NCBI GenBank assembly: GCA_964473255.1
Contig: CAYYOT010000004.1
Location: 68,897-132,896, forward strand
Direction: 5' to 3'
Source: an uncultured Myxococcales bacterium
GTDB lineage: Bacteria; Myxococcota; Kuafuiibacteriia; Kuafuiibacteriales; Kuafuiibacteriaceae
Length of the DNA stretch: 64,000 bases
The first letter of the stretch is position 1; the number at the start of each line of letters is the position of its first letter. Shown piece after piece: positions 7,235 to 48,053 of the stretch. The notes under the pieces are model-generated. The model saw nothing but the letters and a program-made list of their open reading frames with translations, made no database searches and was not told the DNA's origin. A program made the position numbers and the translations under genes.

Positions 7235-7312
7235 TCGACTCCCCGAACGGAATGGGTCGTAGTCCGAACGGGGCCTGGAGGTCACGCCCGAGCGGGTCGT
7301 ACAACCCTCGAC

Positions 7313-11106: not shown

Positions 11107-11107
11107 G

Positions 11108-11503
11108 TCAGTCCCGTCGGAAGAGCCGTCCCAGGACGTAGCCCAAGCCAGCCCCGATCAGCAGAGCCCGGTAGGGATGCTGCTGAATCGAGCGATCGAG
11201 GTCGCCGAGGACCGACCGGGGGTCCCGCTGCTGAAGATATCCGGCCGCCGTGTGCATCTTGTCGGCGACGGCGTCGACGTGTCGCGAGTCGATGTGGAGC
11301 TTGCTGGCGGCCTCGGGCGCCCGGTCCCGCAGATAGTCGGCCGCTTCGTCGAGCTTGCTCCCCATCTTGGTAAAGCCCTTCGAACCCGACTCGTTGGCCT
11401 TATCCAGCAGCTCTTTGGAGGCGTCCTGGGCCAAGCTCCGCGCCCGGTGCTTCAAGTCGACCTGCTCGTCTTTTGTGGTTTCGGTCAGCTCCTGTTCGGT
11501 CAT
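11108..11503 (-). CDS. ElaB/YqjD/DUF883-family ribosome- and membrane-associated protein
   Basis: 131 aa with a charged coiled-coil N-terminus and a C-terminal single transmembrane helix (YRALLIGAGLGYVLGRLF), the typical DUF883 architecture. Confidence 0.6.
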   Translation of the reverse strand: MTEQELTETTKDEQVDLKHRARSLAQDASKELLDKANESGSKGFTKMGSKLDEAADYLRDRAPEAASKLHIDSRHVDAVADKMHTAAGYLQQRDPRSVLGDLDRSIQQHPYRALLIGAGLGYVLGRLFRRD

Positions 11504-13556: not shown

Positions 13557-15902
13557 TCAGCCGGACTGCTTCAGTACGAAGGGGTACTTAACGACCACGA
13601 TGCCCCCGCCCTTCGGTTTGGGGAACTTCCAGGTTCGGATCTTTTGACAGATGCACTGCTCGACCGCTGCATTGTTGAGCGTGGTCTGGTCAACCTTCGC
13701 CATCGTAACCGTGCCCTTACCCGAGATGATGAACTGAGTCGCGACCTTGCCAAAGATCCCGGGGCTGCGACTGAGCTCCTTCTCGTAGCAGTAGCGAATC
13801 TGGGCCAAGTGCTGCTTGATCACCCGCCGGATCACCTCCTTGGGAAGCGACCCCTCGATCCGGACGCGCTCGGTGGTGATGGTGACTCCGCGGTCCTTCT
13901 TCTCGTCGAGCTGTCCGGCGCCCACACCGTAGTCACCGGTACCGCCACCGCCGCGCCCCTTGGTCCCCAGCCCTCCGATTCCGTAGGATGTGTACGACTT
14001 GCCGCCCCCACCGGGTCCGGACCCGCGAAGGCCCAATCCTCCGAAGCCGGAGGCATCGCCGACCCGTGCCCCGGTCACGCCCCCGAGCGCACTCTTGAGC
14101 TCACCGCCCATGCCGGTACCCCCCATGACGGCACCGACGGCGCCCGCCCGACCACCGAAGAGCTTGGTGAGCGCCTGCGTCGCGAGTTCTTTGTCGTCGG
14201 GCTTGCCTTTGTTGGCCCGGCGACCCGGGTTCTTCGGCTTGGCGTCCTTCCGTCCCGCCTTGCCTTGCTTTCCGGCGGCCTTGGCGGCCTTTTCACCAGA
14301 CTTGAGCTTGCTGAGCAGCGCCTGCTGTTTCTTGCGCTGCTCGGGGGAGAGGCGGGTCTGGGTGAACCGATTCACGGCCTGGTAGACCTCCTCGAGATTG
14401 TCCGTCGTTTGCGGCATAGCCAAGAAGCTCGCCACGGCGACGACATGGAGGAACAGCACCAAGATGAAGGTATTCGCGTACTCGTAGCTGATCCGCTCGG
14501 CGAGCGGCACCGGAGGAAGCGAAGTTCGGCGTACATAGCGAACCTGAACTGCGAGCTCGCCGAGATCGACGTAGACCGTCTCCTCGGGCTGCAGCTCGTA
14601 GGTGCCGAAGGCCGGGTCGGCATCCGGGTGGAGGACGCTCTCCAGCGGCAGCACGGGACCATCGAACTTCTCGACTCGACCGGCCGCCGAACGAGGAATG
14701 TGCAGCCGATACTCGGCCGCTTTGTCGCTCATGGACTCCGCGAACACGAACGAGGCAGCTGGGAGACCCCTGGTGGGAACTTCGACGTCGCAGCGCTGAA
14801 CCTTCTGGAATGGTCCCCAGCCGGTGACCTTTCGCTCGTCGCCCAAGGTGACCGTCTTCTCATCGAATACCGTCAGTGAATCGAGGACGACGTCGCTTTT
14901 CCAAAGCGTCTTGATCTCGAGAGCGCGGTGGGTCGGCAGCACCTTCACCGACGCCAGGTTGCTCGGCACGGAGCCCCACGCATGGTCCACGTGGGGCACG
15001 GCCACCCCAGCGTCGTGCCGAGCCGCGGGTGGAAACGGCGCGGTCGAGGTGCTGCTGGTGGGCGGAACCGGCGACACGGCGGGCGCCATGTCCGCGGTAC
15101 TCGCCGAATCGGACGGCGCCGGGGGCGGCGCGCCGGGGAAGCCGCTCGTCGGTGGAGCCTCGGCCTCGACCGGAGGCCCCGAAACGTCGCGGAGCTCTAA
15201 GGCGCGTCCTCCGCTCGCCGGCGCCTCGGCCGGGACCGAAGGCGAGCCGAAACCGCTCGAAGGCGAGCCGAAACCGCTCGAAGGCGAGCCGAAACCGCTG
15301 TTCGGCGGGGACTCCGCCGGAGAGGCCCCGGTGTCGGAGAGCGCGGGAGACGGCGGCGGAAACGAGTCGGTCTGCGCGGGAGCCGGCGGCGAAAACGAGT
15401 CGGTCTGCGCGGGAGACGGCGGCGAGAACGAACCCGTCTGCGCGGGAGACGGCGCCGAGAACGAACCCGTCTGCGCGGGAGGCGACGGCGACAACGAGCC
15501 GGTGTGCGCCGTGGTCGACGCTGGACTCGCGGGAGGCGCCGACGACAATCCCGCAGCCCAGGGCGAAGGCGCGGAGGTCGCCCGCGCAGCCTCCGGCATG
15601 GCGAAACTCGCCCAGTGCAACTCGATTCGGTACGGCCCGACCGTGACGACATCGCCGTCTTCGATCTTTACGCGCGAGACCTTCTGGTCGTTGACGCGGG
15701 TCCCTTCCGGAGACCCCATGTCGATCAGGTTGTAGCCGCCCCCCGATGCTTCGAGTACGGCGTGAATCCGCGCAACCGAGGGCTCGTCGAGCTTCACGTG
15801 GGCCGACGCCAATCGACCGATCTTGAGAAGGTCGCGTTCGAAGGTTTCTTCGAACACGTGCTCGGGACCGCGGTACACGCTGACTTTTACGGGGCGCGCC
15901 AT
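13557..15902 (-). CDS. FHA-domain / TonB-C-domain bitopic envelope protein (GltG/PglI/NfsG-like)
   Basis: 781 aa. The N-terminal FHA domain reads KIGRLASAHVKLDEPSVARIHAVLE...GSPEGTRVNDQKV. It is followed by a long Pro/Ser/Gly repeat linker, one transmembrane helix (FILVLFLHVVAVASFLA), a Lys-rich segment and a C-terminal TonB-C-like domain (IRYCYEKEL...GKGTVTMAKV...). This is the same architecture as Myxococcus GltG/NfsG. Confidence 0.7.
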   Translation of the reverse strand: MARPVKVSVYRGPEHVFEETFERDLLKIGRLASAHVKLDEPSVARIHAVLEASGGGYNLIDMGSPEGTRVNDQKVSRVKIEDGDVVTVGPYRIELHWASFAMPEAARATSAPSPWAAGLSSAPPASPASTTAHTGSLSPSPPAQTGSFSAPSPAQTGSFSPPSPAQTDSFSPPAPAQTDSFPPPSPALSDTGASPAESPPNSGFGSPSSGFGSPSSGFGSPSVPAEAPASGGRALELRDVSGPPVEAEAPPTSGFPGAPPPAPSDSASTADMAPAVSPVPPTSSTSTAPFPPAARHDAGVAVPHVDHAWGSVPSNLASVKVLPTHRALEIKTLWKSDVVLDSLTVFDEKTVTLGDERKVTGWGPFQKVQRCDVEVPTRGLPAASFVFAESMSDKAAEYRLHIPRSAAGRVEKFDGPVLPLESVLHPDADPAFGTYELQPEETVYVDLGELAVQVRYVRRTSLPPVPLAERISYEYANTFILVLFLHVVAVASFLAMPQTTDNLEEVYQAVNRFTQTRLSPEQRKKQQALLSKLKSGEKAAKAAGKQGKAGRKDAKPKNPGRRANKGKPDDKELATQALTKLFGGRAGAVGAVMGGTGMGGELKSALGGVTGARVGDASGFGGLGLRGSGPGGGGKSYTSYGIGGLGTKGRGGGGTGDYGVGAGQLDEKKDRGVTITTERVRIEGSLPKEVIRRVIKQHLAQIRYCYEKELSRSPGIFGKVATQFIISGKGTVTMAKVDQTTLNNAAVEQCICQKIRTWKFPKPKGGGIVVVKYPFVLKQSG
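15238..15300. repeat. Three tandem 21-bp repeats (gaaggcgagccgaaaccgctc) encoding an SSGFGSP heptad repeat in the GltG-like linker
   Basis: Read directly from the sequence. Copies lie at 15238-15258, 15259-15279 and 15280-15300, with one mismatch in the last. Confidence 0.85.
15331..15501. repeat. About five tandem 33-bp repeats (gtctgcgcgggagNcggcgNcgaNaacgaNNcg) encoding an 11-aa PSPAQTxSFSP repeat in the GltG-like linker
   Basis: Four near-perfect copies lie at 15370-15402, 15403-15435, 15436-15468 and 15469-15501, plus a degenerate copy upstream. Confidence 0.85.
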
Positions 15903-15912: not shown

Positions 15913-16194
15913 TCAGATCTGGGAAACCGAGTCCAAGACGTTGGCTCGGAAATCCTCTCGGACCTTGATGAGGTTGCTGTGTCGGATGCGCTTTCGAATC
16001 TCGACGTAATCGCCGTCGGGCTTCGTCAGGTCGCCGTCGATCGTGTCGTCGTCGAAGCTGACGACGGTCTTCTTTTGATAGACCACCTTTTCCACTTCGA
16101 TGATTTCGGTTTCCTGCGCCAGGGCTGGGACAGCGGGGACGGTCGCCGCAAGAACCAGTCCTCCGGCCAACATCCATGTCTGGATACGGAGCAC
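15913..16194 (-). CDS. Small secreted protein (GltF/NfsF-like by position and size)
   Basis: 93 aa with a signal peptide (MLAGGLVLAATVPAVPALAQE). It lies 10 nt upstream of the GltG-like gene, and its size and position correspond to gltF/nfsF. Confidence 0.5.
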   Translation of the reverse strand: MLRIQTWMLAGGLVLAATVPAVPALAQETEIIEVEKVVYQKKTVVSFDDDTIDGDLTKPDGDYVEIRKRIRHSNLIKVREDFRANVLDSVSQI

Positions 16195-16263: not shown

Positions 16264-16935
16264 CTACGACCCCGGGGAGCCAGACGACGACCGCCGGGAG
16301 CGCCGGAGCACGAAGAGAACCAGACCGACCAGGGCAAACAGCCCCCCACCCCACAAAATCAGCAGGGCATTCGACGGCTCCAGCCAGACCCGGCGCGCTC
16401 CACCCGCCACGCCGACCGTGACTGCGACGATCGGCGCCATCCCGGCCGCAGTGCTCAGCATGAATCGGCCGAACCGATAGCCGGATGCCCCGAGCGCCGC
16501 GTTCACCAGACTGAAGTGGGCGAGCGGAACCCATCGGATCCCGGCGACGGCCAAGAGCCCTTTGGCTCCCTCGGCGTCGACGCGTTCTCTCGCCATCGCC
16601 AGCGCCGGATGGGCTCCCAGGCGCGCGGAAAACAGCCGGCCGGCCCAGTAGGTGACGGCAGCACTGGCCAGGCACCCGAGGCTCGCCGCCAGATAGGCTT
16701 CGGCCGGGGGTAGGAGAACGCCGAGCCCCACGAGCAAGACCGTCAAGGGGAGCATCAGCAGCCCACCGACCACGAAGATGAGGACGATCGCCGGAAACAG
16801 CCATCCGGACGCACGGGCCGACCGCAGCATCGACTCCAAGACATCGAGGTCCAGGTACGTCTTCAGGGGCCCAACCTGCCAGGCGGCAGCCAAGACGAGG
16901 GCCGCCAAGGCCGCGAGGACACCGGTCCGTTTCAC
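16264..16935 (-). CDS. DedA/TVP38/TMEM64-family (SNARE-associated) integral membrane protein
   Basis: 223 aa and polytopic. The loop motif and hydrophobic helices (LPLTVLLVGLGVLL..., GYRFGRFMLSTAAGMAPI) match the DedA family. Its start overlaps the upstream stop in an ATGA. Confidence 0.65.
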   Translation of the reverse strand: MKRTGVLAALAALVLAAAWQVGPLKTYLDLDVLESMLRSARASGWLFPAIVLIFVVGGLLMLPLTVLLVGLGVLLPPAEAYLAASLGCLASAAVTYWAGRLFSARLGAHPALAMARERVDAEGAKGLLAVAGIRWVPLAHFSLVNAALGASGYRFGRFMLSTAAGMAPIVAVTVGVAGGARRVWLEPSNALLILWGGGLFALVGLVLFVLRRSRRSSSGSPGS

Positions 16936-18254
16936 TCGAAGTCGTCGTCGGTCGGAAGCGGTTCGGGTTCGGGTTCGGGCTCCGGCTTGGGCTGCGCTTT
17001 TTTGCGAGACTTCGAGCGGGAGCGCCCCCTGGACTTGGACTTGGGCTTCGGCTTGGGTTCGGCCGGAGCCGGCGTTGCGGCAGCGGGGGCGGCCGGAGTC
17101 GCAGCCGGAGCGACCGCCGCCTCGTCTTCGGCCGTGGTCGGGGGACTTTCGGAGACCATCTGGCGTCGGGCTTCGATCTCCTGGAGCATGGCGAAGGTCT
17201 CACGAGACTCCCCGTCCGAGAGCTGCAGGCTACGCTTCAAGTGGACCTCGGCTCCGTTGAGGTCGTCGAAGTGCCGCAGAAGAAGCACGCCCAGATTGAA
17301 ATGAGCCTCCCCGGAGCCGTCGTCGGCGCCGAGTGCCCGACCGTACGCCTCCCGGGCCCCCTCGAAGTCGGCCTGGGCCTTGAGCGCGATACCTAGATTC
17401 ACCCAAGCGGGGGCGGCATCCGGGTCGAGTTCCGCCATCTTGCGGTACGCGGCGGCGGCACCCGCGTAGTCGCGAAGCTCCAGCGAGATGCGCGCGATTT
17501 CGGCGTAGGACCGGGACCGTTCCGGATCGCTTTCGATGGCGCGCGCGAAAGCCTTCATCGACGCGGCCGTCTCACCCTCGGCCTCGGCCGCGAAGCCCAG
17601 AGCCTCGTGCAGGCACGCCAGGTCGGGCGCAAACTTGAAACCCTGGGCCGCGAGGAGTCGGACGCGACCCCACTGCTTCTTCATCTCCGCGCCTCGCGCC
17701 AAGATGCAGTAGGCCTCGGGGAGCGTCGGCTCGTAGGTCAGCGCCTCACGACACAGCCGTTCCGCATCGTCGACATTTCCGCGCGCCAGACGACGCGAAG
17801 CCAAGGTCACGCGGGCGGCGGCGGCGTCGTTTCGACGCTCCACCTCTTCCCGTAGAAGTTGGATCGCCTCCGCATCCTCGCCGGCCAAGAGAAGTAGACG
17901 CGCGAGGTTCTCCCCCGGTCCCGGGAGCCGAGCATCCTCGGCTCGCGCCCGTCGGTAGGACTGCATTGCGTCGTCGGTCTCTCCCTGTTGCTCTTGAGCG
18001 AGGCCCAGATTGAACCACGCCGCAGCAAAGCCCGGGCGCTCTTTGACGATGCCGCGCATGGTTGCCTCCACGCGCGACCACGTCACGGGCTGACCAGCAT
18101 CGATCTCGCCGCGAACGCGCGCTGCTTCTTCGCGGAACGAAGCCTCGGTATCGGCGACCGGGTCGATGACGTCGGCCCCGGAGGATGGACCGCGGGAGCC
18201 CGCGCACCCGATGCCGACGACCAGACTCAGGGCCAGGCTCGTGCCCCTATTCAC
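16932..18254 (-). CDS. TPR-repeat lipoprotein (GltE/AglT/NfsE-like) with a low-complexity charged C-terminal tail
   Basis: 440 aa. It has a lipoprotein signal (LSLVVGIGCAG), multiple TPR-like repeats, and a tail rich in PA/PKPK/PEPEPEP. Its start overlaps the stop of the GltD-like gene in an ATGA. Confidence 0.6.
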   Translation of the reverse strand: MNRGTSLALSLVVGIGCAGSRGPSSGADVIDPVADTEASFREEAARVRGEIDAGQPVTWSRVEATMRGIVKERPGFAAAWFNLGLAQEQQGETDDAMQSYRRARAEDARLPGPGENLARLLLLAGEDAEAIQLLREEVERRNDAAAARVTLASRRLARGNVDDAERLCREALTYEPTLPEAYCILARGAEMKKQWGRVRLLAAQGFKFAPDLACLHEALGFAAEAEGETAASMKAFARAIESDPERSRSYAEIARISLELRDYAGAAAAYRKMAELDPDAAPAWVNLGIALKAQADFEGAREAYGRALGADDGSGEAHFNLGVLLLRHFDDLNGAEVHLKRSLQLSDGESRETFAMLQEIEARRQMVSESPPTTAEDEAAVAPAATPAAPAAATPAPAEPKPKPKSKSRGRSRSKSRKKAQPKPEPEPEPEPLPTDDDFE

Positions 18255-21055
18255 GGCTGCACCTCCGCCACCGAGTCCGGCGGAGCTTCCGACCGGTCAG
18301 GGATCTCGAGCAAGGGACCCTGCTGCGCCGGGGGGGCCAGCGGGACGGGCACGTCGACCGCAGCCGGTCGCTCGATCAAGGTGGGGATCGCACCCTGCTC
18401 CTCGAGCGCCTCCATGCATCGGGTCGAGTCTCGGGTGAACAGGCCGAGCTCCCGCGATTTCTGCGCGCAAGCCCGGTAGGCCTCGAGCCCGGCCTCCTGC
18501 GCCGGCGCGGCCATGGTCTGAATCTCGTCTTTGAACACGAAGCAGGCGTCCTCGTTGAGCCCCCGCGGGCAGGGAACCGACGTGAGCGCGGCAACGAAGT
18601 CCGTCCAGATACCGGCGATGCGATTGAGGGCGGCCAGCGTGCTGTCGGCCTGCTGGTACCGAGTGACGATGCGAGTGTAGCTCTGGATCAGCTCGTCCCG
18701 CGCCTTCGACTTCGCCGCAACGGATTTTTGAAAGGGCTTGGGGTTCCGAAGATTGGGACGGACGATCCTGGTCTTGATGAACCGCTGATACGGCTGTTCG
18801 AGATCTTCGAGCGCATACAGAGCCACCCACTTACGACCCGCCTCGGGCACCTTGTCGCGGCCCGCCGCGCGGTAGCGGCGCTCCAACTCCCGGCGCAGCT
18901 TTGCTGCCGTCGACGTCTGCCGGAGCTTGCTTCGCAGGGCCGCTTCCCGACCGAGCGCATCCCAGAAACGAGAATCCTTGGGAAACTGTTTTCGGAACGA
19001 CGCGTAGCGTTCCGCGGCTTCTCTGATACGGTCGCCACGCTCGAGGTCGACGGCGACCGTCCAGTAGAGGTCGGCCGTCTCGCCGGTCTTCGATCGACCG
19101 TACCGTTCGATGTAGTTGAGCCGCACTTCGGCCGCCGTCTTCACCCGGTTGACGCCGGCGTAGAAGACCGAAGCATTGTACATCGCGTCCTGCGCGCGCT
19201 CGTCCTCCGGGTAGTTTCGAGCGAAGGCGAGGAACGCGTCGGCAGCCAGGAGGAACTCGGTCCTCTCCTCGTGTTGTCGAGCGACGTAGTGAGCGACGTC
19301 GGCGCGGAGCGGCGAGTCCTCGAACTCGACGAGCAGCCGTTGGCGCAAGGCGCGGGCTCGCTCCTTTTGCCCAGCGCGGTCCCAGGCGAGCGAAGCGTTG
19401 AATAGCGCCTTGTCCGCATTGGGGCTGCGAGGATACTCGGCGTAGAAATCCTCGTAAGCTTGCGCGACCTGACGATCGGTGGCGGACCCGGCTGCAGCCT
19501 GTGCCTCCAGCGCCTGAACCAGCTTGAACTTCGCGAACTGGCCGAACCGAGCCAAATCCTTCGCTAGTCCGGGCCGACCGCGAACCAGCGCTTCGTTCGC
19601 ACGATAGGCGGAAGCCGTCGCATAGAGCGCGCCCCAGTCTTCGCGCAAATTGTGGATGTCCACCACGAGGTTCGCCGAGTATTCGGCCTGCTCGCTTCGT
19701 GGAGCTTCGTTCACGATCGACTCGAATCGCGGAAGCGCTTCGTCGAAGTGATTGTAGTCGTAGAGTATCTTGGCGGCGCGAAATCGAACCTTCTCCCGCT
19801 GCTCCGCCTTGTCCTCGGGGACGAACTGCACATACATCTGGCAGGCGTCGATGAGCCGCAGCATTTGTGGATGGATCTCGACGGGCTCGGTCCCCCCCTT
19901 GGGCGTTTCGATGTCGAGGTCGCGAAGATGCTCCTCGATGGCCAGGATCCGATCGTTGGCCGCGTCGACAACGTGCTTCCCTTCCGGCTCGGCCAAAACG
20001 GTCATTCGGTAAGCGTTCGCCGCTTCGTCGAAACGCTCCAGCTTGTAATAGAGGTCGGCGAGCTGAAAGCGCATCTCGTACGAGGACTCAGCGTCGTCGA
20101 AGACGGCCAGGTAGTCCTCGTACATGGTGAGCGCATGAGCGAACGTGCTCTTGGTCTTCGTCTTTCGAGCCTCTGCGTTCCAGACCTGGGCCAGACGACG
20201 AATCGTAGACTGGGCGAGGAGCTGAGCACTCTCGAAGGCGTCGGCCGCCTCCGGCGACTCCCCGGCCAACGCCTCGAGCTTCTGGTAGCTAGCCACCAGC
20301 TTCTTGCTCTCGGCGACGGTCGCCTTCTTGCTGCCCAGACGAGAGACGAGGTCGACGATGCGCGCCTGACGGTAGGTATTGCGCAGGTCGTCGGGGCGTC
20401 CCGCGATCAGCGTTCGGTAGAGTGCGGCAGACTCGGCGAAGTAGCCGCTCTCGAACCACAGACCGGCCAGCTGGTCGAGCAGCTTCCGACAGCGGTCGCT
20501 CGTGCAGTCATTCTCGCTGAGCAGGTCGGCGAACTCGAGCGGAGCGCGCCGCGGATTACCGACGTGCGCGTAGGTTCGCACGAAGTCCTTCTGCGCTTCC
20601 CGCCCTAGCGCGATCTTGTTCTCGCCGCTGAGCTCACTCGCCAGCTGCGAGTAGAAGACGGTCGCCTTGAACTTCTCCAAAGCCTTTTCCCATTCAGATA
20701 GATTGAAGTAGCACCAGCCCTGTTTGTAGAGCGCGAAGCCGTACACTCGGGAGCGACGATCCTTGGCTGCCTTCTGATAGCTGCGGAGCGCTCGATTGAC
20801 GTCGTTGTTCTCGAAATAGAACTCGCCAAAACCGAGCCAGGCGTCGGACACCAAAGGGCTCTCCGGATACACGCGGATCAGGTCCGCATACACGTCGATC
20901 GCCTCCTGATACTGCTCCTGACTCCAATAGGCTTGGGCCAGAGCGAACAGGACCTCGGGCATGCGCGTATAGCCGGGATAGACCTCCCGAAGCTCGCGAT
21001 ACATGGCCATCGCCGACTGAAGCCACTCTTGGTTTGCTCGCTCGGCGGCCTTCAT
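18251..21055 (-). CDS. Large periplasmic TPR protein, main body (GltD/AgmU/NfsD-like); no signal peptide of its own
   Basis: 934 aa of TPR-like repeats throughout (YWSQEQYQEAIDVYADLIRVYPES..., WCYFNLSEWEKALEKFK...). It lies in the same reading frame as ORF 21074..21430, which carries the signal peptide and the first TPR helices. Confidence 0.6.
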   Translation of the reverse strand: MKAAERANQEWLQSAMAMYRELREVYPGYTRMPEVLFALAQAYWSQEQYQEAIDVYADLIRVYPESPLVSDAWLGFGEFYFENNDVNRALRSYQKAAKDRRSRVYGFALYKQGWCYFNLSEWEKALEKFKATVFYSQLASELSGENKIALGREAQKDFVRTYAHVGNPRRAPLEFADLLSENDCTSDRCRKLLDQLAGLWFESGYFAESAALYRTLIAGRPDDLRNTYRQARIVDLVSRLGSKKATVAESKKLVASYQKLEALAGESPEAADAFESAQLLAQSTIRRLAQVWNAEARKTKTKSTFAHALTMYEDYLAVFDDAESSYEMRFQLADLYYKLERFDEAANAYRMTVLAEPEGKHVVDAANDRILAIEEHLRDLDIETPKGGTEPVEIHPQMLRLIDACQMYVQFVPEDKAEQREKVRFRAAKILYDYNHFDEALPRFESIVNEAPRSEQAEYSANLVVDIHNLREDWGALYATASAYRANEALVRGRPGLAKDLARFGQFAKFKLVQALEAQAAAGSATDRQVAQAYEDFYAEYPRSPNADKALFNASLAWDRAGQKERARALRQRLLVEFEDSPLRADVAHYVARQHEERTEFLLAADAFLAFARNYPEDERAQDAMYNASVFYAGVNRVKTAAEVRLNYIERYGRSKTGETADLYWTVAVDLERGDRIREAAERYASFRKQFPKDSRFWDALGREAALRSKLRQTSTAAKLRRELERRYRAAGRDKVPEAGRKWVALYALEDLEQPYQRFIKTRIVRPNLRNPKPFQKSVAAKSKARDELIQSYTRIVTRYQQADSTLAALNRIAGIWTDFVAALTSVPCPRGLNEDACFVFKDEIQTMAAPAQEAGLEAYRACAQKSRELGLFTRDSTRCMEALEEQGAIPTLIERPAAVDVPVPLAPPAQQGPLLEIPDRSEAPPDSVAEVQP

Positions 21056-21073
21056 CTCCTCGGTCGCTCGCGC

Positions 21074-21430
21074 CTACCCGGCTTCGTCTTCGGCGGCCAC
21101 CCGGCGCTCGTCAGCCTCCTGAGCGCGAAAGAAGTAGAACCCGGCCTTTTCGTAATAGAGCTCACCGAGTCGAAACTTGATATCGGGAATCTCGGCCTCG
21201 TCGGCGCCAAGTTCGAGGAGTCGCAGCAGACCCGCGATCTGGTCGTCCCGCTTGGCCGCAGCCTGAAGTTCGACGCCCTTTCGAAACCGATCGTACGACA
21301 GCGTCGGCGCCGAGGTGTCATCCTTGATCTTCTTGGGTCGGACTCGCGTCTTGCCCTCGGCGATCGCGCCCCCGAGCAGCAGGAGCGATACGGCCCAGGT
21401 TCCGGCCCGGCGGCGGCGGCGGCATCGCAT
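21074..21430 (-). pseudogene. N-terminal signal-peptide fragment of the GltD-like TPR protein, separated from the main body by an apparent in-frame stop (or a 1-nt frameshift)
   Basis: 118 aa: MRCRRRRRAGTWAVSLLLLGGAIAEG... ending ...YYEKAGFYFFRAQEADERRVAAEDEAG*. By track coordinates it is in the same frame as 18251..21055 and separated by only 6 codons. The (GGC)7 tract at 21400-21421 encodes the poly-Arg. Confidence 0.5.
21400..21421. repeat. (GGC)7 trinucleotide tract
   Basis: ccggcggcggcggcggcggcgg on the plus strand. It encodes the RRRRR run in the N-terminus of the GltD-like fragment (minus strand). Confidence 0.7.
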
Positions 21431-21431
21431 G

Positions 21432-23318
21432 TCAGCGGCAGGAGCGGGCGAGCGTCAGCTCATACGTGCCGAGCTCGTCGCGCCAGTACTCCCCTTCAAA
21501 GGGCCAAACCAGCTTCTCGTCATCGGTCCACGCTACGTAGGTTCGTTCGGTCTGCTTGGGCCTGGACTGAACGGCGCGAAGCTGGGACTCGATCCGCTCC
21601 TGCTCGGAGCGCGCCGTCTCGATGTCGATTCGAACCGCTTGCTGGATCAGAGACCGAATGTTTTCCCGCTCCTGGATTAGGCGGCGCTCCACGGCGAGAC
21701 CCGCTTCGGCAGAAAGTCCATCGAGTTTCCGAGTGAGCGCAGCGTCCAGTTCGCCGGCGAGCCGCGTATCGAACCCCAAGTCGGGGATCCGAGACCGCTC
21801 GGAGAGTACTTCGTCGCGAGAACGGTCCAGGCGAGCCAAGTCGGGGTCGGCCAGCGCAAGCTCGAGAATTCTGCTCAAGAGCACGGGGTCACCGCTCTCG
21901 GCCTCCATCAGGTCGTCGTTCTTCAGTCCGTCGAGGATGGAGAGGTATTGTTCGGAGGTTTCGTTGTCTTGCGTCAAACGGCGGAGCTCCTCCAAAAGCG
22001 GTTCGTAGCGCTGCATGAACGCCGCCAGTATGGCCTTGGCCTCGGCATAGCGGCAGTTCTCATAGTAGATGACCGCCTCCAGAACACGAGATTCGGGAAA
22101 ATACGAGTCGGCGAAAAACGGGGCATGGAGCGTCAGGAGGTTGCCCAGCGCCTTCTCGTAGTTGCCCAAGCGGAACTGTGCCCAGCTCTCTTCAAAGAGC
22201 GCCGCCAGCCAGTCCGCCGAGTCCCGACTGACCTTGTTGTAGTAGAAGATCGAGAACGTGGGCTGTGAGGCCCCAAAGTGGGTTCGCGCCAGCTGGAAAA
22301 AGGCGAGCTCTCGGAGTCGGGCATTCGGATGGGGCTGGTCGGGCCGCGTGAGGCGTACCACGTCCTTGAAGGCCTTCAGCGCCTCGTTCTCTTTGCGGTC
22401 GTGAAACAGAACCACCGCTTCGATGAACTTCGCTCGACCGCCGTACTCTGAGTCGGGGTTCACGCGCAGGGCATACTCGCGGGCCTGCTGGAGGTGAGAG
22501 GAGACGGTGAAGGCACCCGAGGGCGGAGTAGCCCCGAAGACGTCGACTTCCAGCTCGATGCCCCCCTCTTCCTTTCCCGCACCGGTCGCGTCGCCGGAAC
22601 CGAACAGGTCCGTACCCACTGAAATCCCGTCGGACCCGGACTTCGTCTCGTTACCGGTGGTGGTTTCACCGGTTCCGAACAAGTCGCCTCCGACGGAGAT
22701 CCCGCCGCCACTGCTCTTCGAGGCGTCAGCGTCGTCGGACCCGAACAGGTCGCCGCTGACGCTGAGTCCCTCGCCCTTCTTCTGCGTGAGCATCGGGCGC
22801 TGAGCCTCGCGCTCCATGCGCAGTCCGGAATTTGCGTGGTACCGCGCGAGGCGGAACAGGAACTCGTCGCGGTACTCGGAGGGGAAATCGGTCGAGCCGA
22901 ACTTCACCAGAGTCTCGCTTACCGACGCGTCGTCGACCATCTTTCGGCCGATGAACAGACACCATTCGAGAGCCGCCTGGTAGTATCGACCGTCCGGCCC
23001 AAGTTCGAGCACCCGAGCGAAAGCATCGAGCGCGCCGTGATACAGCTCGAGCCGATACAGACTCTTGCCCAGCAGGTAAGTCGCCTCGTCCTGGAGCTCC
23101 GGTTCGGTCGCGGACGTTTCCTGTTCGAAGAAGAGTCCTGCCGCCTGCACGTACTCCCGTCGCTCCATGAGGGCCTTGCCTTGCTCGATGGCCGCGCGGG
23201 CCGGGTCGCCCTGCTCGGCGGCAACTTGCCCCAGGCCCGTCGAGCCGGCGTCGTCTTGGCCTGTCGCAGTCAGCGGGACGGCGACCAACACAGCTAGGAG
23301 TCGCATCGAAACCCTCAT
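21432..23318 (-). CDS. Secreted TPR protein with internal GDLFG/ISVG repeat block (GltC/NfsC-like)
   Basis: 628 aa with a signal peptide (MRLLAVLVAVPLTATG) and TPR-like helices. The central repeats read SGDLFGSDDA, ISVGGDLFGTG, ISVGTDLFGSG and VDVFGA. It is 1 nt from the downstream gene and 5 nt from the upstream outer-membrane gene. Confidence 0.55.
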   Translation of the reverse strand: MRVSMRLLAVLVAVPLTATGQDDAGSTGLGQVAAEQGDPARAAIEQGKALMERREYVQAAGLFFEQETSATEPELQDEATYLLGKSLYRLELYHGALDAFARVLELGPDGRYYQAALEWCLFIGRKMVDDASVSETLVKFGSTDFPSEYRDEFLFRLARYHANSGLRMEREAQRPMLTQKKGEGLSVSGDLFGSDDADASKSSGGGISVGGDLFGTGETTTGNETKSGSDGISVGTDLFGSGDATGAGKEEGGIELEVDVFGATPPSGAFTVSSHLQQAREYALRVNPDSEYGGRAKFIEAVVLFHDRKENEALKAFKDVVRLTRPDQPHPNARLRELAFFQLARTHFGASQPTFSIFYYNKVSRDSADWLAALFEESWAQFRLGNYEKALGNLLTLHAPFFADSYFPESRVLEAVIYYENCRYAEAKAILAAFMQRYEPLLEELRRLTQDNETSEQYLSILDGLKNDDLMEAESGDPVLLSRILELALADPDLARLDRSRDEVLSERSRIPDLGFDTRLAGELDAALTRKLDGLSAEAGLAVERRLIQERENIRSLIQQAVRIDIETARSEQERIESQLRAVQSRPKQTERTYVAWTDDEKLVWPFEGEYWRDELGTYELTLARSCR

Positions 23319-23322: not shown

Positions 23323-24090
23323 TCACTCGTAGTCGTACTCGAATTTGGGAGGCAGGAAGAACGAAACCATCAAACCGAAGAAGCCCGGAGTTCGAAGCTC
23401 CGAGTCTCCGTTGCGCTCCTCCACGAAGAAGTAGTTTCGATACTCGATACGGACGGCTAGCCACTTCAGGGCGAAGAAGCGCATGCCAATGCCGAGGTTA
23501 CCCGCGCCGTGAAGTCCGACGTCCGTACCCACGAGACCACCTCCGGCCGCGATGTAGGTGTCGAAGTGAAGAATGGCATCACCGAACAGTGACATCTTTC
23601 CGTAGATCGGTGCCCACAAGAGGTCGAAGTCGACCAGGTAGTCGAGCTCGTACTGTTCGGTCAGCAGTGCGTCGGTCTCCTCCCGCACGAAACGGACGAC
23701 ATCTGTTTCCTCTTGAACGACCACACCCACGCCGCGGGCCTCGAGCGCGAGACCGTCGGTGATGTGGTACGCGAGCGAGCCGCCCAGCGTCAGCTGACGG
23801 AAGAATGCGTCGTTGAGATTCAGCCCCACGAATGGAGTGACGTCGAATCGGCGACGCTTCAGAAACACCTTCTGTTGCACGGATTTGATGCGATCCGACA
23901 GCTTTTGCTCGTCCTCTTCGGCAGCCTCTTTGGTGACTTCTTCTTCCGCCGAAGTCTCGTCGTCAGACACTTGGGCTCGCGTCTCGGACGGCCACGGCCC
24001 CGAGAGGAGGAAAAACAAGGCCAGGCCGGCCCGGGCAAAGTGTCGACTCATGAGCTGACGCGGGGATGCTACGCCCATCCCGGAACCCAC
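23323..24090 (-). CDS. Outer-membrane beta-barrel protein (GltA/GltB/NfsA/B-like; OmpA-like barrel size)
   Basis: 255 aa with a signal peptide, alternating amphipathic beta-strands (LNLNDAFFRQLTLGGSLAYHITDGLALEARGVGVV...) and an aromatic C-terminal region. It is the first gene of the operon. Confidence 0.55.
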   Translation of the reverse strand: MGSGMGVASPRQLMSRHFARAGLALFFLLSGPWPSETRAQVSDDETSAEEEVTKEAAEEDEQKLSDRIKSVQQKVFLKRRRFDVTPFVGLNLNDAFFRQLTLGGSLAYHITDGLALEARGVGVVVQEETDVVRFVREETDALLTEQYELDYLVDFDLLWAPIYGKMSLFGDAILHFDTYIAAGGGLVGTDVGLHGAGNLGIGMRFFALKWLAVRIEYRNYFFVEERNGDSELRTPGFFGLMVSFFLPPKFEYDYE

Positions 24091-24151: not shown

Positions 24152-24538
24152 GTGCTACGTCGGAGTCTCATGAGAGCACTCCTTGCCCTCGGATGCGTGG
24201 CCTTCGCCTTTGCGGCCTGCTCGGAGTCGGACGTCGGCCGGTGCTGTGAGGTCTTGATCCAGAACGGCGAAGACCTGCTGCCCGTTTCCGAGGAGATCTC
24301 GCCGGGGAAGTTCATCAACGACGTCTCGCGCGACCCCGCATTCGACTGTGAGAGCCTGACGTGCGTGGCGTTCTTGGGATCCGAGGCCTACTGCACCGCG
24401 GCGTGCAGCAGCGACGAGGACTGCCCGGGAGGCTTCGTTTGCGTCTCGGTGCTGCAGAGCGACCCTCCGCCCGGAAGCTCGATCACCGCGGAGGACATGT
24501 TCTGCGTCCGGGACGAGTTTCGCGCGAGCTGCGATTAG
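24152..24538 (+). CDS. Small secreted Cys-rich protein (lipoprotein-like signal)
   Basis: 128 aa. Signal ALLALGCVAFAFAAC. There are 12 Cys, including CC, CxSLTC and CTAAC patterns. Confidence 0.45.
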   Translation: MLRRSLMRALLALGCVAFAFAACSESDVGRCCEVLIQNGEDLLPVSEEISPGKFINDVSRDPAFDCESLTCVAFLGSEAYCTAACSSDEDCPGGFVCVSVLQSDPPPGSSITAEDMFCVRDEFRASCD

Positions 24539-24564
24539 CGCAAGCCACGAAAACGCTTGGACAT

Positions 24565-24990
24565 TCAGCGCGGGGGGATCGTTCGAGCGACCTGGTCGCG
24601 AAGGTCGACGTTGCCCTTACCCGCAGCGCTGCACACGTCGGCCGGTCGACTGCATTCCATGTAGGAGCCGAGGAACATCTTGCAGCCCTGCGGGTCGAGG
24701 CGCGCCAAGATCCGGACCCCGATGGTCGCGGCCTCCACCCGGGCTTCGGCCTTTTGACCCTCGGCCTCCAAACGACACGCCGGACTGAAGGCCTGCAACC
24801 AGGCCTGCACAGCGAGCTCCTCTCCGTCGAGGTCCTCGGGTACCGATCCGTCGGGAGCCGCCCGGCGGTTCGTCGTCAGATAGCTTCGCACGGCCCGGCT
24901 CCAAGCCGACTGACAGTCCGCTTCGCTTCGCGCCTGGGCTACGCCCATGGACGAGATGAGGACCAACAGCGCGAGCCCCGACCGCAGCAT
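24565..24990 (-). CDS. Secreted hypothetical protein
   Basis: 141 aa with a signal peptide (LALLVLISSMGVAQA) and 6 Cys. Confidence 0.35.
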   Translation of the reverse strand: MLRSGLALLVLISSMGVAQARSEADCQSAWSRAVRSYLTTNRRAAPDGSVPEDLDGEELAVQAWLQAFSPACRLEAEGQKAEARVEAATIGVRILARLDPQGCKMFLGSYMECSRPADVCSAAGKGNVDLRDQVARTIPPR

Positions 24991-25055
24991 GAGCTACGTG
25001 TTACCCTTCATCGGAGAGGGCTTCAAGAAGTTGGCCCTTAGGCACAACGGGCTCA

Positions 25056-25973
25056 TCACGGTCCATCGACGGAGCGGACGGTGCCCAGCAGGTCTTTTTC
25101 GGGGACGAAGCCGAGTTCTCGGCGGGCCGCCGAGCCGTCGACGATACAGTGGTACTGGATATGCCGGAGCTCTGCCGTGGGAAAGCCGGTCATGCCGAGA
25201 CGAAAGCCCCCGGCCAAAAGTGACTTGGCGAGCGGCCCCGGGAGGCTTCGGGGTCGTCGCCCCAAGACCTCCAAGATACGTGAAAGTGGCGCCTCCCCCG
25301 GTCCTACGACGTTGAACACCCCGCGAGCGTCGGTCTGCACCGCGCGGACGAGAACGCGAACGACGTCCTCTTCGTGGATCAGCTGAACCATGGGATCGAA
25401 GCCCATGATCGTCCACGGACGCTCCAGCCGCAGGTAGAGTGTAGGGGCATTCCTTACGCGCGGTCCGACGATGTGAACCGGCCGGAGCAGGACGGTTCCG
25501 ATCTGTGGCTGTCGGTAGAAGAAGCTCTGGACGATGTTGTCGACGGCGACCAGGTCTCGCACGTCGGCATCGTGCTCGGCGCCGAGGAGCGGAGCGTCCT
25601 CGGTCAGAAACTGTGAGTTGTCGGGGTCCGGCCCATAGATGTTCGCGCTGGACAGCATCACGAATCGGCCGACTCCATAGCGAGCGGCCAGCTCGAGGAG
25701 CCGCTGTGTCCCGATCACGTTGTACCGATACTGTCGAACGCGATTCCGCGGGTCGTGCTTGATGCCCAGATGGACGACGGCATCGATTCGACGCTGACGG
25801 AAGACTTCCTCCATGGAGCGCCAGCGCAGGTCACCCTGAATATGGGTCACGTCCTTGGGTAGCCCGTGGATGCTCCGACGATCGACGGCGATCACGTCAT
25901 GGTCGCGGTGGAGTTGCTGGACCAGCAACCGGCCCAGGTTCCCGGCAGCTCCGGTCGTCAAGACGACGCTCAC
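25056..25973 (-). CDS. NAD-dependent epimerase/dehydratase (extended SDR) family protein
   Basis: The N-terminus is TGAAGNLGRLL (Rossmann). The SDR-like catalytic region (SSANIYGP) is present. 305 aa. Confidence 0.7.
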   Translation of the reverse strand: MSVVLTTGAAGNLGRLLVQQLHRDHDVIAVDRRSIHGLPKDVTHIQGDLRWRSMEEVFRQRRIDAVVHLGIKHDPRNRVRQYRYNVIGTQRLLELAARYGVGRFVMLSSANIYGPDPDNSQFLTEDAPLLGAEHDADVRDLVAVDNIVQSFFYRQPQIGTVLLRPVHIVGPRVRNAPTLYLRLERPWTIMGFDPMVQLIHEEDVVRVLVRAVQTDARGVFNVVGPGEAPLSRILEVLGRRPRSLPGPLAKSLLAGGFRLGMTGFPTAELRHIQYHCIVDGSAARRELGFVPEKDLLGTVRSVDGP

Positions 25974-26812
25974 CGGAAGATCCCCTGGCGCTCGACGAGT
26001 CCGCGGTCGAGAAGGCTCGCGATCCGGTCGCGGACCACGTCGATCTTCGTACGGATCACCTGGTCGTCTTCGTTGCCCTCACCCTCGAACCGAAGCGGCT
26101 CCCCGAAGTAGATGCGGTACCGCGTGGGCAGCGGCAACAAGCCGAGCGGGCCGAACCAGGGGAACGTGGGGGTAATCGGAAACGCGGGTGCCCCCACCAT
26201 CCGGCCGATCCCCTCGAGGTTGGCGAGACTGGGGGCCTGCTCCTCGGCCCCCACCACCGCGACGGGAACGATGGGTGCGCCAGCCTGAAGCGCGAGGCGC
26301 ATGAATCCCGACCCGAATCGAGCCAGCTGGTAGCGCCTCGAGAAGGGCTTCGATAGGCCCCGGACGCCCTCGGGAAAGACGAGGATGGCCTCCTCGTTAC
26401 GCAGGAGGCGCAGGCAGTTCTCGGGCGTCCCCACGACTTGGCCAAGCCGCGCCATGAGAACCGAAACGAAGGGCAGCCGCGGGACCCAGCGCTCGATCAT
26501 GGAGCGCGGGACCCGCGGCGGGTCGCGCTCCATGAGCATGGCGCCGGCGATCATCAGTCCGTCGAAGGGGAGCTGGCCCGAATGGTTCGAGCAGAGCAGA
26601 ACCCGCCCCTCGGGGACGTTCTCGATCCCTTCGGTGAGCACGCGAAAGTACCGCGTGTAGAGCCAACCCACCCAGCGGGCGGCCCTGCGGATCGCCTCCG
26701 GGTCGTAGCCGAAGGGATCCACGCCGAACGGTCCCACGTCGGTCGAGAGCTTTCGCAGGCGACCGATCGCTTCCTCTACGTCCACCGGGGGCGAGCGGTC
26801 CTTGGCAGCCAT
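25970..26812 (-). CDS. Lysophospholipid (1-acyl-sn-glycerol-3-phosphate) acyltransferase, PlsC family
   Basis: The NHSGQLPFD motif (HX4D), the FPEG motif (LVFPEGVRG) and the PIVPVAVVG block are present. 280 aa. Its stop overlaps the epimerase start. Confidence 0.7.
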   Translation of the reverse strand: MAAKDRSPPVDVEEAIGRLRKLSTDVGPFGVDPFGYDPEAIRRAARWVGWLYTRYFRVLTEGIENVPEGRVLLCSNHSGQLPFDGLMIAGAMLMERDPPRVPRSMIERWVPRLPFVSVLMARLGQVVGTPENCLRLLRNEEAILVFPEGVRGLSKPFSRRYQLARFGSGFMRLALQAGAPIVPVAVVGAEEQAPSLANLEGIGRMVGAPAFPITPTFPWFGPLGLLPLPTRYRIYFGEPLRFEGEGNEDDQVIRTKIDVVRDRIASLLDRGLVERQGIFR

Positions 26813-26844
26813 GGACGAGGACTGTAATCGCGACCGAGGCCGGT

Positions 26845-28209
26845 GTGGTAGCGTCGAAGGGCGTGGAAGGTCCCAAGACGACGTACGTGGGCAGCGAGAT
26901 CCATCTCGACCGCCCGAAACTGATCGTCCTGAGTGGCCCGCAGAAGGGCCGAGAGGTGTCGCTCGACCGGCTACGTCTCACTCTGGGGTCGGCTTCCGAC
27001 AACGACGTGGTGCTCGAGGGCCTGGCTCCGGTCCACGCCGAGCTCTCGGTGGAGGCCGCTGGGCTGCTCTTTCAGGATCGCTCGGGCGGACGCTCGAAGG
27101 TCAACGGCTCGGCGATCCACGAGGCGGTCCTCGGACCCGGAGCAACTCTGGAACTCGGCGACGTCGAGATGAAGCTTCAGGACGCGCAGAATGCGCTCGC
27201 GGTCCTGCCCTCCTCGCGAGACCAGTTCGGGGACGCTCGCGGCCGGTCGCTCGCCATGCGAGAAATCTTCGGTGTGCTCGAGGCCATCGCGCCGACCCAG
27301 GCCACGGTGCTCCTCATGGGGGAGACGGGCACCGGAAAAGACGTCCTCGCCCGGGGCATCCACACCTGCTCGGACCGGAGCGGCGAAAGCATGCAGACGC
27401 TGGACTGCGGGGCCATCGCGCCGAGCCTCATCGAGAGCGAGCTCTTCGGATACGAGCGGGGCGCGTTCACCGGAGCCGAAGAGCAGCACATCGGGGCGTT
27501 CGAGCGCGCGAATGGAGGAACGTTGTTCCTCGACGAGATCGGAGAACTCCGGTTGGACGTTCAGCCGAAACTGCTTCGAGCGTTGGACGAACAGGAGATC
27601 CAGCGCGTCGGCGGGAGCCAAACCGTGCGTGTCGACGTCCGCGTCGTCGCTGCCACGAAGCGCGACCTCCTCGAAGAAGTGAAGCGCGGCCGCTTCCGCG
27701 AGGATCTGTGGTTTCGGCTGGCGGTCGTCCCGCTGACACTGCCCCCGCTGCGGCTTCGCCGAGAGGACATCCCTGCCCTGGTGGACACGTTCGTCCAGCG
27801 CTTTCGCGCACAGCACCCCGAATCTCGCGGAACGATCTCACCGGAAGAGGTGTCTCGGCTTCAGGCCCATGACTGGCCCGGCAATGTCCGTGAGCTGAAG
27901 AACACCGTGGAGCGCGGCCTGTGGATGGCGCAGACGGGTGACGGTGAAGTGCGGTTCCTGCTGCCGAGCCTGCAGCCGCAGGGGCTCGAGGCAGCCACCC
28001 CAGCGGACCACTTCGATCCCGGTCGGTCCTTCTCCGAGCACAAGCAAGCATGGGAAGAGGACTTCGAGCGTTCTTTCCTTCCCTGGCTCCTGGCTCGGGC
28101 GGACGGGAGCCTCTCCAAAGCAGCGCGGCTCGCGTCCATGGACCGCAAGCATTTGCGGAACCTCCTTCGCCGGCACGGCTTGCGCGACGACGCGGATGGG
28201 AGCGGTTGA
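26845..28209 (+). CDS. FHA-domain sigma-54-dependent transcriptional activator (NtrC-family enhancer-binding protein)
   Basis: The N-terminal FHA domain reads LTLGSASDNDVVLEGLAPVHAELSV...GGRSKVNG. The AAA+ sigma54 domain has GETGTGKDVLA and the GAFTGA motif (ERGAFTGA). A C-terminal HTH is present (LSKAARLASMDRKHLRNLLRRHGL). Confidence 0.8.
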   Translation: MVASKGVEGPKTTYVGSEIHLDRPKLIVLSGPQKGREVSLDRLRLTLGSASDNDVVLEGLAPVHAELSVEAAGLLFQDRSGGRSKVNGSAIHEAVLGPGATLELGDVEMKLQDAQNALAVLPSSRDQFGDARGRSLAMREIFGVLEAIAPTQATVLLMGETGTGKDVLARGIHTCSDRSGESMQTLDCGAIAPSLIESELFGYERGAFTGAEEQHIGAFERANGGTLFLDEIGELRLDVQPKLLRALDEQEIQRVGGSQTVRVDVRVVAATKRDLLEEVKRGRFREDLWFRLAVVPLTLPPLRLRREDIPALVDTFVQRFRAQHPESRGTISPEEVSRLQAHDWPGNVRELKNTVERGLWMAQTGDGEVRFLLPSLQPQGLEAATPADHFDPGRSFSEHKQAWEEDFERSFLPWLLARADGSLSKAARLASMDRKHLRNLLRRHGLRDDADGSG

Positions 28210-28249
28210 CCGCATCGTCGGCGTCGGTTGAGCTTCCGCCACGACGCCG

Positions 28250-29560
28250 ATGGCGCTCCTGTACATGAGCATGGCGGGCGAGGGCCGCGGCCACGCCACG
28301 CGGATGCGAGCTCTCGTGGAAGCGCTCCGCTCCCGGCACCGCATCCGCCTGTTCGCTCCTGGAGCTGCCTACGACCTGCTCTCTCCGGCGTACCGCGACA
28401 CCGAAGTGCAGGTCACTCCGATTCCCGGACTGCCCAACGTCTACTCTTCGGAGCGGGAGCTCAACTATGCGGCTACACTCCGAAAGTCGGCTCACTTCTT
28501 TCGGCGGCTCCCCAGCGTGCTGCGGCGGCTCCAGACCGAGTTTTCTCGGGAGCGTCCCGACCTGGTCGTCTGCGACTTCGAGCCCGTGCTCCCGCGCGCC
28601 GCGGATCGATGCCGCGTGCCGTGTATGGTCGTCGATCATCAGCACTTTCTCATCGTGAGCGATCTCTCGGAGCTGCCGCTCCGGCTGAGATTCCACGCCA
28701 CCACGCTCGGTTGGGTCGTCCGCTTCATCTACCGACGTCCGCGGACGGTGGTCCTGTCCTCGTTCCACACGGCGCCCCTCAAGCCCGGGACCCGCTCGGT
28801 TCGTCAGGTTGGCCCCTTCCTGCGACCGAGCGTCCTGCGCGCTCGCCCTGGGCCGGGTCGGCATCTGCTGGTGTATCTGCGGAGATTTGCTCCACCGAAG
28901 CTCTTGGAGGGACTGTTCCGATTGGGCCGACCAACCATCATCTATGGACTCGGCGCGCTCCCTGCCGAAGGGAGCCTGACCTTCAAGGACGTGGAAGAGG
29001 ATGCGTTCGTGGCCGATCTCGCGAGCGCCCAAGCTCTGATCACCACCGCCGGCAATCAGATCGTGGGCGAAGCCATGTACCTGGAGAAGCCGGTGCTCGC
29101 CATGCCGGAGGCCAACAACTTCGAGCAAGCGATCAATGCGCATTTCCTCGTCGAGAGCGGGGCCGGTATCGCCGTCCCCCTGGAGGAGTGTGGCTTCGAG
29201 CAGCTCGTCGATTTCGTCGCTCGTCTGTCCCAGTTTCGCGCCCTACCGCGAACGACACGTTCGAACGGAACGCCCGACGCGGTGGAAGCCATCGAGGGTG
29301 AGCTCGCGCGGCTGGACGGGCCGCCTCCCGCGAAGGGCGAAGCCGCTCAGCGGACGACGATGTCGGCGCGTTCGAACGACACGGTTCCGTTGACGACCCC
29401 GAAAGCCACCCCGCCCGCCCGAGGAGCGGGCGTTTCGCAAAGCTGCTCCTCGGAGCCGTCGGCGCCGAGGTCGAGCGTGACGCGCGTCCCGCCCGCCGAG
29501 CGGCGAATGCGAACCTCGATCGGTCCCGCTTCCCCGAGTTCCGGCAGCAAGACTGGTTGA
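28250..29560 (+). CDS. GT-B glycosyltransferase (GT1/MGT-family or GT28-like UDP-glycosyltransferase)
   Basis: The N-terminal motif is GEGRGHATRMRALVEAL. The C-terminal domain has an ITTAGNQIVGEAMYLEKPVLAMP nucleotide-sugar-binding block. The low-complexity tail overlaps the convergent lipoprotein gene, so the 3' end is uncertain. Confidence 0.6.
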   Translation: MALLYMSMAGEGRGHATRMRALVEALRSRHRIRLFAPGAAYDLLSPAYRDTEVQVTPIPGLPNVYSSERELNYAATLRKSAHFFRRLPSVLRRLQTEFSRERPDLVVCDFEPVLPRAADRCRVPCMVVDHQHFLIVSDLSELPLRLRFHATTLGWVVRFIYRRPRTVVLSSFHTAPLKPGTRSVRQVGPFLRPSVLRARPGPGRHLLVYLRRFAPPKLLEGLFRLGRPTIIYGLGALPAEGSLTFKDVEEDAFVADLASAQALITTAGNQIVGEAMYLEKPVLAMPEANNFEQAINAHFLVESGAGIAVPLEECGFEQLVDFVARLSQFRALPRTTRSNGTPDAVEAIEGELARLDGPPPAKGEAAQRTTMSARSNDTVPLTTPKATPPARGAGVSQSCSSEPSAPRSSVTRVPPAERRMRTSIGPASPSSGSKTG

Positions 29561-48042: not shown

Positions 48043-48053
48043 GATGAAGCGAC

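Follow-up and report, generated by a model that had tools for sequence, protein, structure and literature searches.

GltD (AgmU, MXAN_4870) of the Myxococcus xanthus Agl-Glt machinery and its ortholog in Archangium are giant, all-helical tetratricopeptide repeat (TPR) proteins of ∼1,220 amino acids that carry an N-terminal export signal. A published model of the Myxococcus machine, based on AlphaFold, places GltD in the periplasm as the central pillar between GltC at the outer membrane and GltG and GltJ at the inner membrane; GltC is contacted by a helix in the N-terminal part of GltD (residues 67 to 97 in mature numbering), and the N-terminal domain of GltD is bound by the TonB-like domains of GltG and GltJ (PMC11761067). 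No glt deletion mutant of M. xanthus is able to glide (PMC3169522). Here, we describe a gltD-family gene in a 64,000-nucleotide (nt) stretch of DNA, called the window below, from an uncultured Myxococcales bacterium (GenBank assembly GCA_964473255.1, contig CAYYOT010000004.1, positions 68,897 to 132,896). The gene is likewise predicted to encode a large, exported, all-helical TPR protein but is interrupted by a single in-frame amber codon, probably because of a very recent nonsense mutation in the sampled population.

The interrupted gene consists of two open reading frames (ORFs) on the minus strand (Table 1). Direct reading of the codons showed that the upstream ORF contains 118 sense codons, ends in ...VAAEDEAG, and is closed by a TAG, and that the downstream ORF of 934 codons starts with the ATG at 21055..21053 and terminates with a TGA (18251..18253). 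The two are separated by 18 nt, GCG CGA GCG ACC GAG GAG, which are six in-frame sense codons. Since the two ORF starts are 375 nt apart (21430 − 21055 = 375 = 125 × 3), both ORFs share one frame, so that the gene is interrupted by one in-frame amber codon and not by a frameshift. An earlier note on this DNA, made from the letters alone, had placed the two ORFs in one frame, six codons apart and with an in-frame TAG between them, and our codon reading agrees with this; the 17-nt gap that the note had also given, with a 1-nt frameshift as the alternative, was a miscount. Read through the amber codon, both ORFs together give a conceptual product of 1,059 amino acids, and no second stop or frameshift is found within these 1,059 codons.

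The upstream ORF begins with a predicted Sec-type signal, which we read by eye as a basic n-region (RCRRRRR), the h-region WAVSLLLLGGAIA, and the cleavage motif AIA/EG; the N termini of homologs are similarly hydrophobic. Part of its run of five arginines (MRCRRRRRAG) is encoded by a trinucleotide tract that had been described as (GGC)7 and in which we count five units, not seven. The arginine run is absent from the N termini of homologs, and slippage in the tract would alter the number of arginines while the frame is kept. The downstream ORF, which encodes the body of the protein and is annotated as a separate protein (P0001) in the source record, has Pfam matches to TPR_6, TPR_2, TPR_19, and TPR_16.

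The read-through product aligns with GltD of Archangium minus over ∼990 residues (residues 33 to 1025 versus 75 to 1144; 31% identity; E value, 8e-131), and this alignment continues uninterrupted through the position of the stop. The Archangium protein has 1,226 amino acids and heads a gltE-gltG cluster (locus L077, 7779..11459), which is a true G1 cluster with scores of 757.6 bits for GltE and 1038.1 bits for GltG. It matches only generic TPR models in NCBIfam, which appears to be without any GltD model. Because of the full-length homology to the Archangium protein and the glt gene neighborhood (gltC, a gltE-like gene, gltF, and gltG), we assign the gene to the GltD/NfsD family; it lies in a compact locus with the order outer-membrane protein (OMP) gene, gltC, gltD, gltE, gltF, and gltG. 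Its product, ∼1,060 amino acids in length, is predicted to serve in the periplasm as the TPR scaffold of an envelope machine of the Agl/Glt or Nfs type. The identification as GltD-like in the earlier note is borne out by these data, as is its view that a single gene was cut in two and that the body itself lacks an export signal.

The architecture expected for GltD is present and comprises an export signal (by eye), a helical N-domain, a central TPR solenoid, and a helical C-domain, and the predicted fold, a long TPR solenoid between helical domains, matches the published description of GltD (PMC11761067). The product is, however, shorter than GltD of Myxococcus and Archangium (1,059 versus ∼1,220 amino acids), and in contrast to them it is not encoded as one uninterrupted polypeptide, with the amber codon at position 119. 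The gene is a disrupted member of the GltD family, and it is a pseudogene or null allele unless the sequence is in error.

Searches with the read-through product retrieved 170 homologs, and the 85 closest full-length proteins (46 to 64% identity) were used for comparison. All 85 are uninterrupted proteins of 1,040 to 1,130 amino acids with 92 to 100% of the query covered, and only the window's own 934-amino-acid entry is short. At the column of the stop, 68 carry lysine and 11 carry arginine; 4 have other residues, and 2 have a gap. At the DNA level, we compared 19 orthologous loci, 17 from species-representative genomes and 2 from metagenome contigs. Each of them (19/19) carries an uninterrupted ORF of 1,057 to 1,160 codons, and where the window has its stop, 11 loci have AAG, 2 have AAA, 4 have an arginine codon, 1 has CCC, and 1 has a gap. 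Since most loci have AAG at this position, one A-to-T transversion accounts for the TAG. The nearest relatives (62 to 64% identity; loci L081 and L082 to L084) show the same neighborhood with one gene that encodes 1,062 or 1,064 amino acids. The comparison of the junction with orthologs that the earlier note had proposed was thereby made, and it revealed uninterrupted genes throughout, with lysine or arginine as the usual residue where the window has its stop.

The start methionine of the 934-amino-acid ORF aligns with serine, glutamate, lysine, or other non-methionine residues in all homologs, and it is therefore a chance methionine rather than a conserved start. Upstream of the stop, N-terminal residues such as P42, F49, R61, E80, P82, F86, E90, L91, and F100 are invariant or nearly so. 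No stand-alone homolog of the 118-amino-acid piece was found in a profile-free search of 1.84 billion representatives, which returned long GltD-like proteins plus short entries, ten of which were read. A stand-alone N-terminal gene family was considered and rejected, as these ten are contig-end, adaptor-derived, or frameshifted fragments; most of them run beyond residue 118, and the two shortest break off earlier. Four short representatives (P0127, P0129, P0131, and P0148) have adaptor-derived (...CLLYTSPSPRD) or frameshifted tails, which shows that most truncated GltD-like entries among public metagenome proteins are artifacts.

The AlphaFold model of an intact ortholog with 64% identity (P0002; mean predicted local distance difference test score [pLDDT] of 87.6) is an all-helical solenoid with N-terminal helices at residues 42 to 73, 81 to 112, and 116 to 150. 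Codon 119 of the window corresponds to K119 of this ortholog, the fourth residue of helix 116-150 directly after the turn at 113 to 115, and the restart methionine (residue 126) falls within the same third helix. Judged from this model, the stop would part the signal peptide and helices 1 and 2 from the remainder of one domain. By approximate alignment through the Archangium protein, the helix that contacts GltC would lie within the 118-amino-acid fragment. A Foldseek search against the PDB was uninformative and returned only generic long TPR scaffolds (Ctr9, Ski3, and IFT-A) with template modeling (TM) scores of <0.25.

Four explanations had been listed in the earlier note, two of which, recent pseudogenization and sequencing or assembly error, still stand; stop codon readthrough and two separately translated products gained no support. 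We consider it probable that the TAG is real and represents a nonsense allele that arose very recently in the sampled population by an A-to-T change at lysine codon 119 (AAG to TAG). A real allele is favored because no other damage is found in the window and because substitution errors rarely survive into a consensus. At the sequence level, the gene appears to be free of decay: in 166 conserved columns (≥90% conservation among other sequences), the window deviates at 8 (4.8%), compared to 3.6 to 4.2% in the closest intact relatives and 0 to 9% in intact members of the same subfamily. In a scan of ∼45 window ORFs against Pfam or NCBIfam, profiles were covered essentially end to end wherever a family matched, including those of GltC, PPDK, Lnt, RNase Z, 6PGD, an epimerase, a Sigma54 activator, a glycosyltransferase, and kinases, and the local assembly looks clean. 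In-frame stops were surveyed with a crude gene map based on codon usage together with these checks of profile coverage; a scan based on GC content at third codon positions was too noisy, as antisense frames look coding in DNA with 65% GC. Ordinary bacterial nonsense pseudogenes and null alleles show the same pattern, that is, one premature stop generated by a single base change in an otherwise conserved ORF and seen in one sequence only, and nothing sets this case apart from them.

Several points weigh against a real allele. A one-base consensus or sequencing error would look identical, and a lone clean stop without further damage is equally expected from such an error. Both gltD pieces are singleton clusters that derive from one 148.5-kb NCBI contig; among species-representative genomes, the best match has 56% identity, and no second copy was found. 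A scan of JGI metagenomes with the N-terminal 295 amino acids yielded three distant TPR matches (27 to 29% identity) and no contig from the same species. Look-ups of the exact proteins, i.e., the 934-amino-acid ORF and GltC, had nothing recorded.

An artifact of sequencing, assembly, or consensus calling is accordingly a possible, though clearly less likely, explanation. The true codon 119 would then be AAG and gltD would be intact, with the T at 21076 having been miscalled or mis-polished or representing a minority variant. It fits this explanation that a single base separates the sequence from an intact gene, that conservation in the remainder of the gene is on a par with that in intact relatives, that the source is a single metagenome-type contig without a replicate, and that fragments of the family in raw-run assemblies often have adaptor-derived or frameshifted tails. 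However, at normal coverage a consensus seldom retains substitution errors, and no homopolymer or repeat is found at the junction. Truncated profile matches and further in-frame stops were absent from all ∼45 window ORFs that were scanned, which speaks against an assembly rich in errors.

The functional readings, recoding of the stop or a designed split, are jointly very improbable at best. For recoding, the UAG would have to be decoded as sense, be it through programmed readthrough, a suppressor tRNA, or pyrrolysine, to give a full-length exported and possibly regulated GltD. The frame is indeed open and conserved past the stop, and the lysine-type residue expected at this position is in superficial agreement with such a reading. 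We nevertheless regard recoding as highly improbable, since neither the 85 proteins nor the 19 loci have a stop at this position, the 91 nt around it (21110..21020) fold no better than shuffled sequence (z = 0.65), and the junction contains no repeats or hairpins. In the crude codon-usage map, TGA closes 35 genes and TAG closes 5 (this fragment counted), the latter including 16264..16935, 36387..39587, and 46483..48042, and no other gene is interrupted by TAG in ∼19,500 codons. TAG is found at gene ends and not inside other genes, and it thus seems to act as an ordinary terminator in the window. In addition, no tRNA gene is present in the window. The use of pyrrolysine is tied to methylamine methyltransferases and pyl genes, and these were not seen here.

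Least credible of all is an evolved arrangement of two functional genes, a small exported N-terminal protein and a separate 934-amino-acid body; two proteins are annotated in the source record, and 18 nt past the stop there is an ATG directly preceded by GAGGAG, but this GAGGAG leaves essentially no spacer, the restart methionine is not conserved, a single helical domain is cut within its helix 3, an export signal is missing from the body although GltD works in the periplasm, the 118-amino-acid piece has no stand-alone homolog among the 1.84 billion representatives, and no independent genome was found that combines the same split with a signal peptide on the body.

For the favored reading, a real nonsense allele, the following consequences would be expected. 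Translation from the ATG at 21430 would stop at codon 119 and yield a 118-amino-acid precursor, which would be exported and cleaved to leave a periplasmic fragment of ∼94 amino acids with helices 1 and 2 only. Bacterial ribosomes can restart near a stop codon, and termination at the TAG may be followed by a restart at the ATG that lies 18 nt farther on, although the GAGGAG is placed directly against this ATG. The restart product would be the 934-amino-acid body, which would begin inside helix 3, lack a signal peptide, and stay in the cytoplasm, and full-length exported protein would arise from basal near-cognate readthrough of the UAG only. Since all glt deletions abolish gliding in M. xanthus, the allele should be a fresh null or strongly hypomorphic allele and not a designed split, and because GltD is the central pillar in the published Myxococcus model, the machine would be largely nonfunctional in cells with the amber allele. 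It is very improbable that the amber allele is real and tolerated, with restart after termination and a little readthrough of the UAG giving an exported 94-amino-acid fragment that may still bind GltC, a cytoplasmic body, and traces of the full-length protein; were this the case, it would represent a naturally attenuated or "off" state of a Glt/Nfs-type machine in an uncultivated Myxococcota lineage, for example in a nongliding or nonsporulating ecotype or a cheater genotype.

Table 1. Positions of the interrupted gltD-family gene, its parts, and the neighboring glt genes in the window
Feature	Position	Strand	Remarks
gltD-family gene (conceptual)	18251..21430	−	1,059 codons if amber is read as sense, plus TGA; based on alignments with homologs and Archangium minus GltD
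N-terminal fragment	21074..21430	−	118 codons plus TAG; signal peptide and, from the N-terminal helical domain, the first two long helices
Predicted Sec signal peptide	21359..21430	−	Codons 1 to 24 (MRCRRRRRAGTWAVSLLLLGGAIA, then EG)
(GCC)5 trinucleotide tract	21409..21423	−	(GGC)5 on the plus strand; in frame, in the Arg-rich n-region of the signal peptide
Premature amber TAG, codon 119	21074..21076	−	Changed base is T at 21076 (A on the plus strand)
Six sense codons (ARATEE)	21056..21073	−	GAGGAG abuts ATG; aligned with the start of helix 3 in homologs
Body ORF, 934 amino acids	18251..21055	−	TPR solenoid and C-terminal helical domain; no signal peptide
gltC	21432..23318	−	NF033756 gliding_GltC, 480.7 bits (cutoff, 450); its TGA lies 1 nt before the gltD ATG
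Outer-membrane beta-barrel gene (GltA/GltB-like)	23323..24090	−	TIGR04565 OMP_myx_plus, 121 bits (cutoff, 60); position conserved in L081 to L084
gltE-like TPR gene	16932..18254	−	NF033758 gliding_GltE, E value of 3.5e-35, 121.8 bits, below the cutoff of 225; position conserved in relatives
gltF/cglF (93 amino acids)	15913..16194	−	NF033764 gliding_CglF, 103.2 bits (cutoff, 90)
gltG-like gene	13557..15902	−	FHA domain, transmembrane segment, TonB-C-like AgmX/PglI tail

The genes of the locus are arranged in the order OMP gene, gltC, gltD, gltE-like gene, (dedA), gltF/cglF, and gltG, and the order of the gltC, -D, -E, -F, and -G genes is also found in L081 to L084. The gltE-like gene overlaps the gltD stop by 4 nt, and the product of the gltG-like gene matches NF033760 gliding_GltG (E value of 2.4e-148; 495.6 bits) below the cutoff of 650, with 114.7 bits for its tail (NF033768). 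As for GltD of Myxococcus and Archangium, the gltE-like, gltF/cglF, and gltG genes come after gltD. In Myxococcus, gltC and the outer-membrane barrel gene belong to a separate G2 cluster, whereas here both lie beside gltD; genes of the G1 and G2 types are likewise joined in one locus in Anaeromyxobacter (PMC3169522). Compared to the core complex clusters of Luciano et al. 2011 (aglRQS plus gltC, -D, -E, and -G) in Anaeromyxobacter and in lineages outside the myxobacteria, gltF and the OMP gene are additionally present here, and these two were dated by Luciano et al. to the common ancestor of Myxococcales and Bdellovibrionales (PMC3169522). Among the ∼45 window ORFs scanned, which was not exhaustive, none matched a TolQ/TolR-type protein of the aglRQS motor.

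A contiguous arrangement of A/B-like OMP, C, D, E, F, and G genes is also that of the nfs operon (nfsA-H) of M. xanthus. The likeness to its Nfs spore coat machinery, a paralog of Glt to which NfsD belongs, was drawn by gene order, and the cluster may serve motility, sporulation, or another process.

A gene for a DedA/VTT membrane protein (16264..16935, minus strand; PF09335; E value, 6e-14) lies between the gltE-like gene and gltF, in contrast to the order in Myxococcus and Archangium. It overlaps the gltE stop by 4 nt, ends in TAG, and has no counterpart at its position in the nearest relatives L081 and L083, so that it resembles an insertion into the glt operon that is specific to this lineage. 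The dedA/gltF pair was considered as a split gene and rejected, as gltF covers its entire profile. The GltE-like protein has 440 amino acids, versus 397 to 406 in the nearest relatives, and ends in a long low-complexity tail (...AAPAAATPAPAEPKPKPKSKSRGRSRSKSRKKAQPKPEPEPEPEPLPTDDDFE). On the other side of the cluster, genes for an acyltransferase, an epimerase, an FHA-sigma54 activator, and a family 1 glycosyltransferase (24197..29560) are syntenic with those of a 64% identical relative (L082, 816..5172). Because of this synteny, the neighborhood next to the glt genes, including the possible sigma54 regulator, appears to be conserved together with the cluster. Downstream of the cluster, two adjacent small genes encode 131 and 101 amino acids (10801..11503, minus strand), the second of which matches PF07332 (Holin-X, holin superfamily III); they are unrelated to Glt.

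Further observations concern the remainder of the window. A plus-strand gene at 36096..39587 that ends in TAG encodes a protein of ∼1,070 to 1,160 amino acids with seven DUF7151 repeats (308 bits) and He_PIG Ig-like domains, without an NCBIfam match. A run of minus-strand genes (46483..55079) follows the pyruvate phosphate dikinase gene (55076..57727) and encodes two large orphan proteins of 615 and 1,031 amino acids without Pfam or NCBIfam matches (50140..55079), an FHA protein with a TadA/VirB11-like secretion ATPase (48054..50069), and a double-FHA protein (46483..48042); this run may be an uncharacterized FHA-regulated secretion or pilus-type module. The two orphan ORFs were considered as a paralogous Glt cluster and rejected, as the GltD body matched only itself in a BLASTP search against all predicted proteins. 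At 6347..8179, two ORFs of ∼590 to 600 codons on opposite strands overlap almost fully, with Pfam domains in their C-terminal halves that occupy nonoverlapping DNA (a fructosamine kinase on the minus strand and a 3-hydroxyisobutyrate dehydrogenase-like domain on the plus strand). These are really two divergent genes for proteins of ∼290 amino acids each, the long ORFs being high-GC extensions and a trap for any ORF-based reading. Two other pairs of neighboring ORFs in the same frame, GH63-like/6PGD and TolC-like/MlaC, were considered as split genes and rejected as pairs of unrelated genes.

The interruption is an ordinary nonsense mutation or a consensus error that involves no new mechanism and is of little import beyond annotation. 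In the annotation, the two proteins should be replaced by one gltD-family gene with an internal stop, marked as a pseudogene or a suspected error. The compact OMP-gltC-gltD-gltE-gltF-gltG locus of this lineage adds modestly to what has been described on how the machinery evolved in modules (Luciano et al. 2011; PMC3169522). If the allele is real, the central periplasmic connector of a Glt/Nfs-type machine is affected by a null allele in this uncultivated Myxococcota population, which would bear on how motility or sporulation is inferred from metagenome-assembled genomes.

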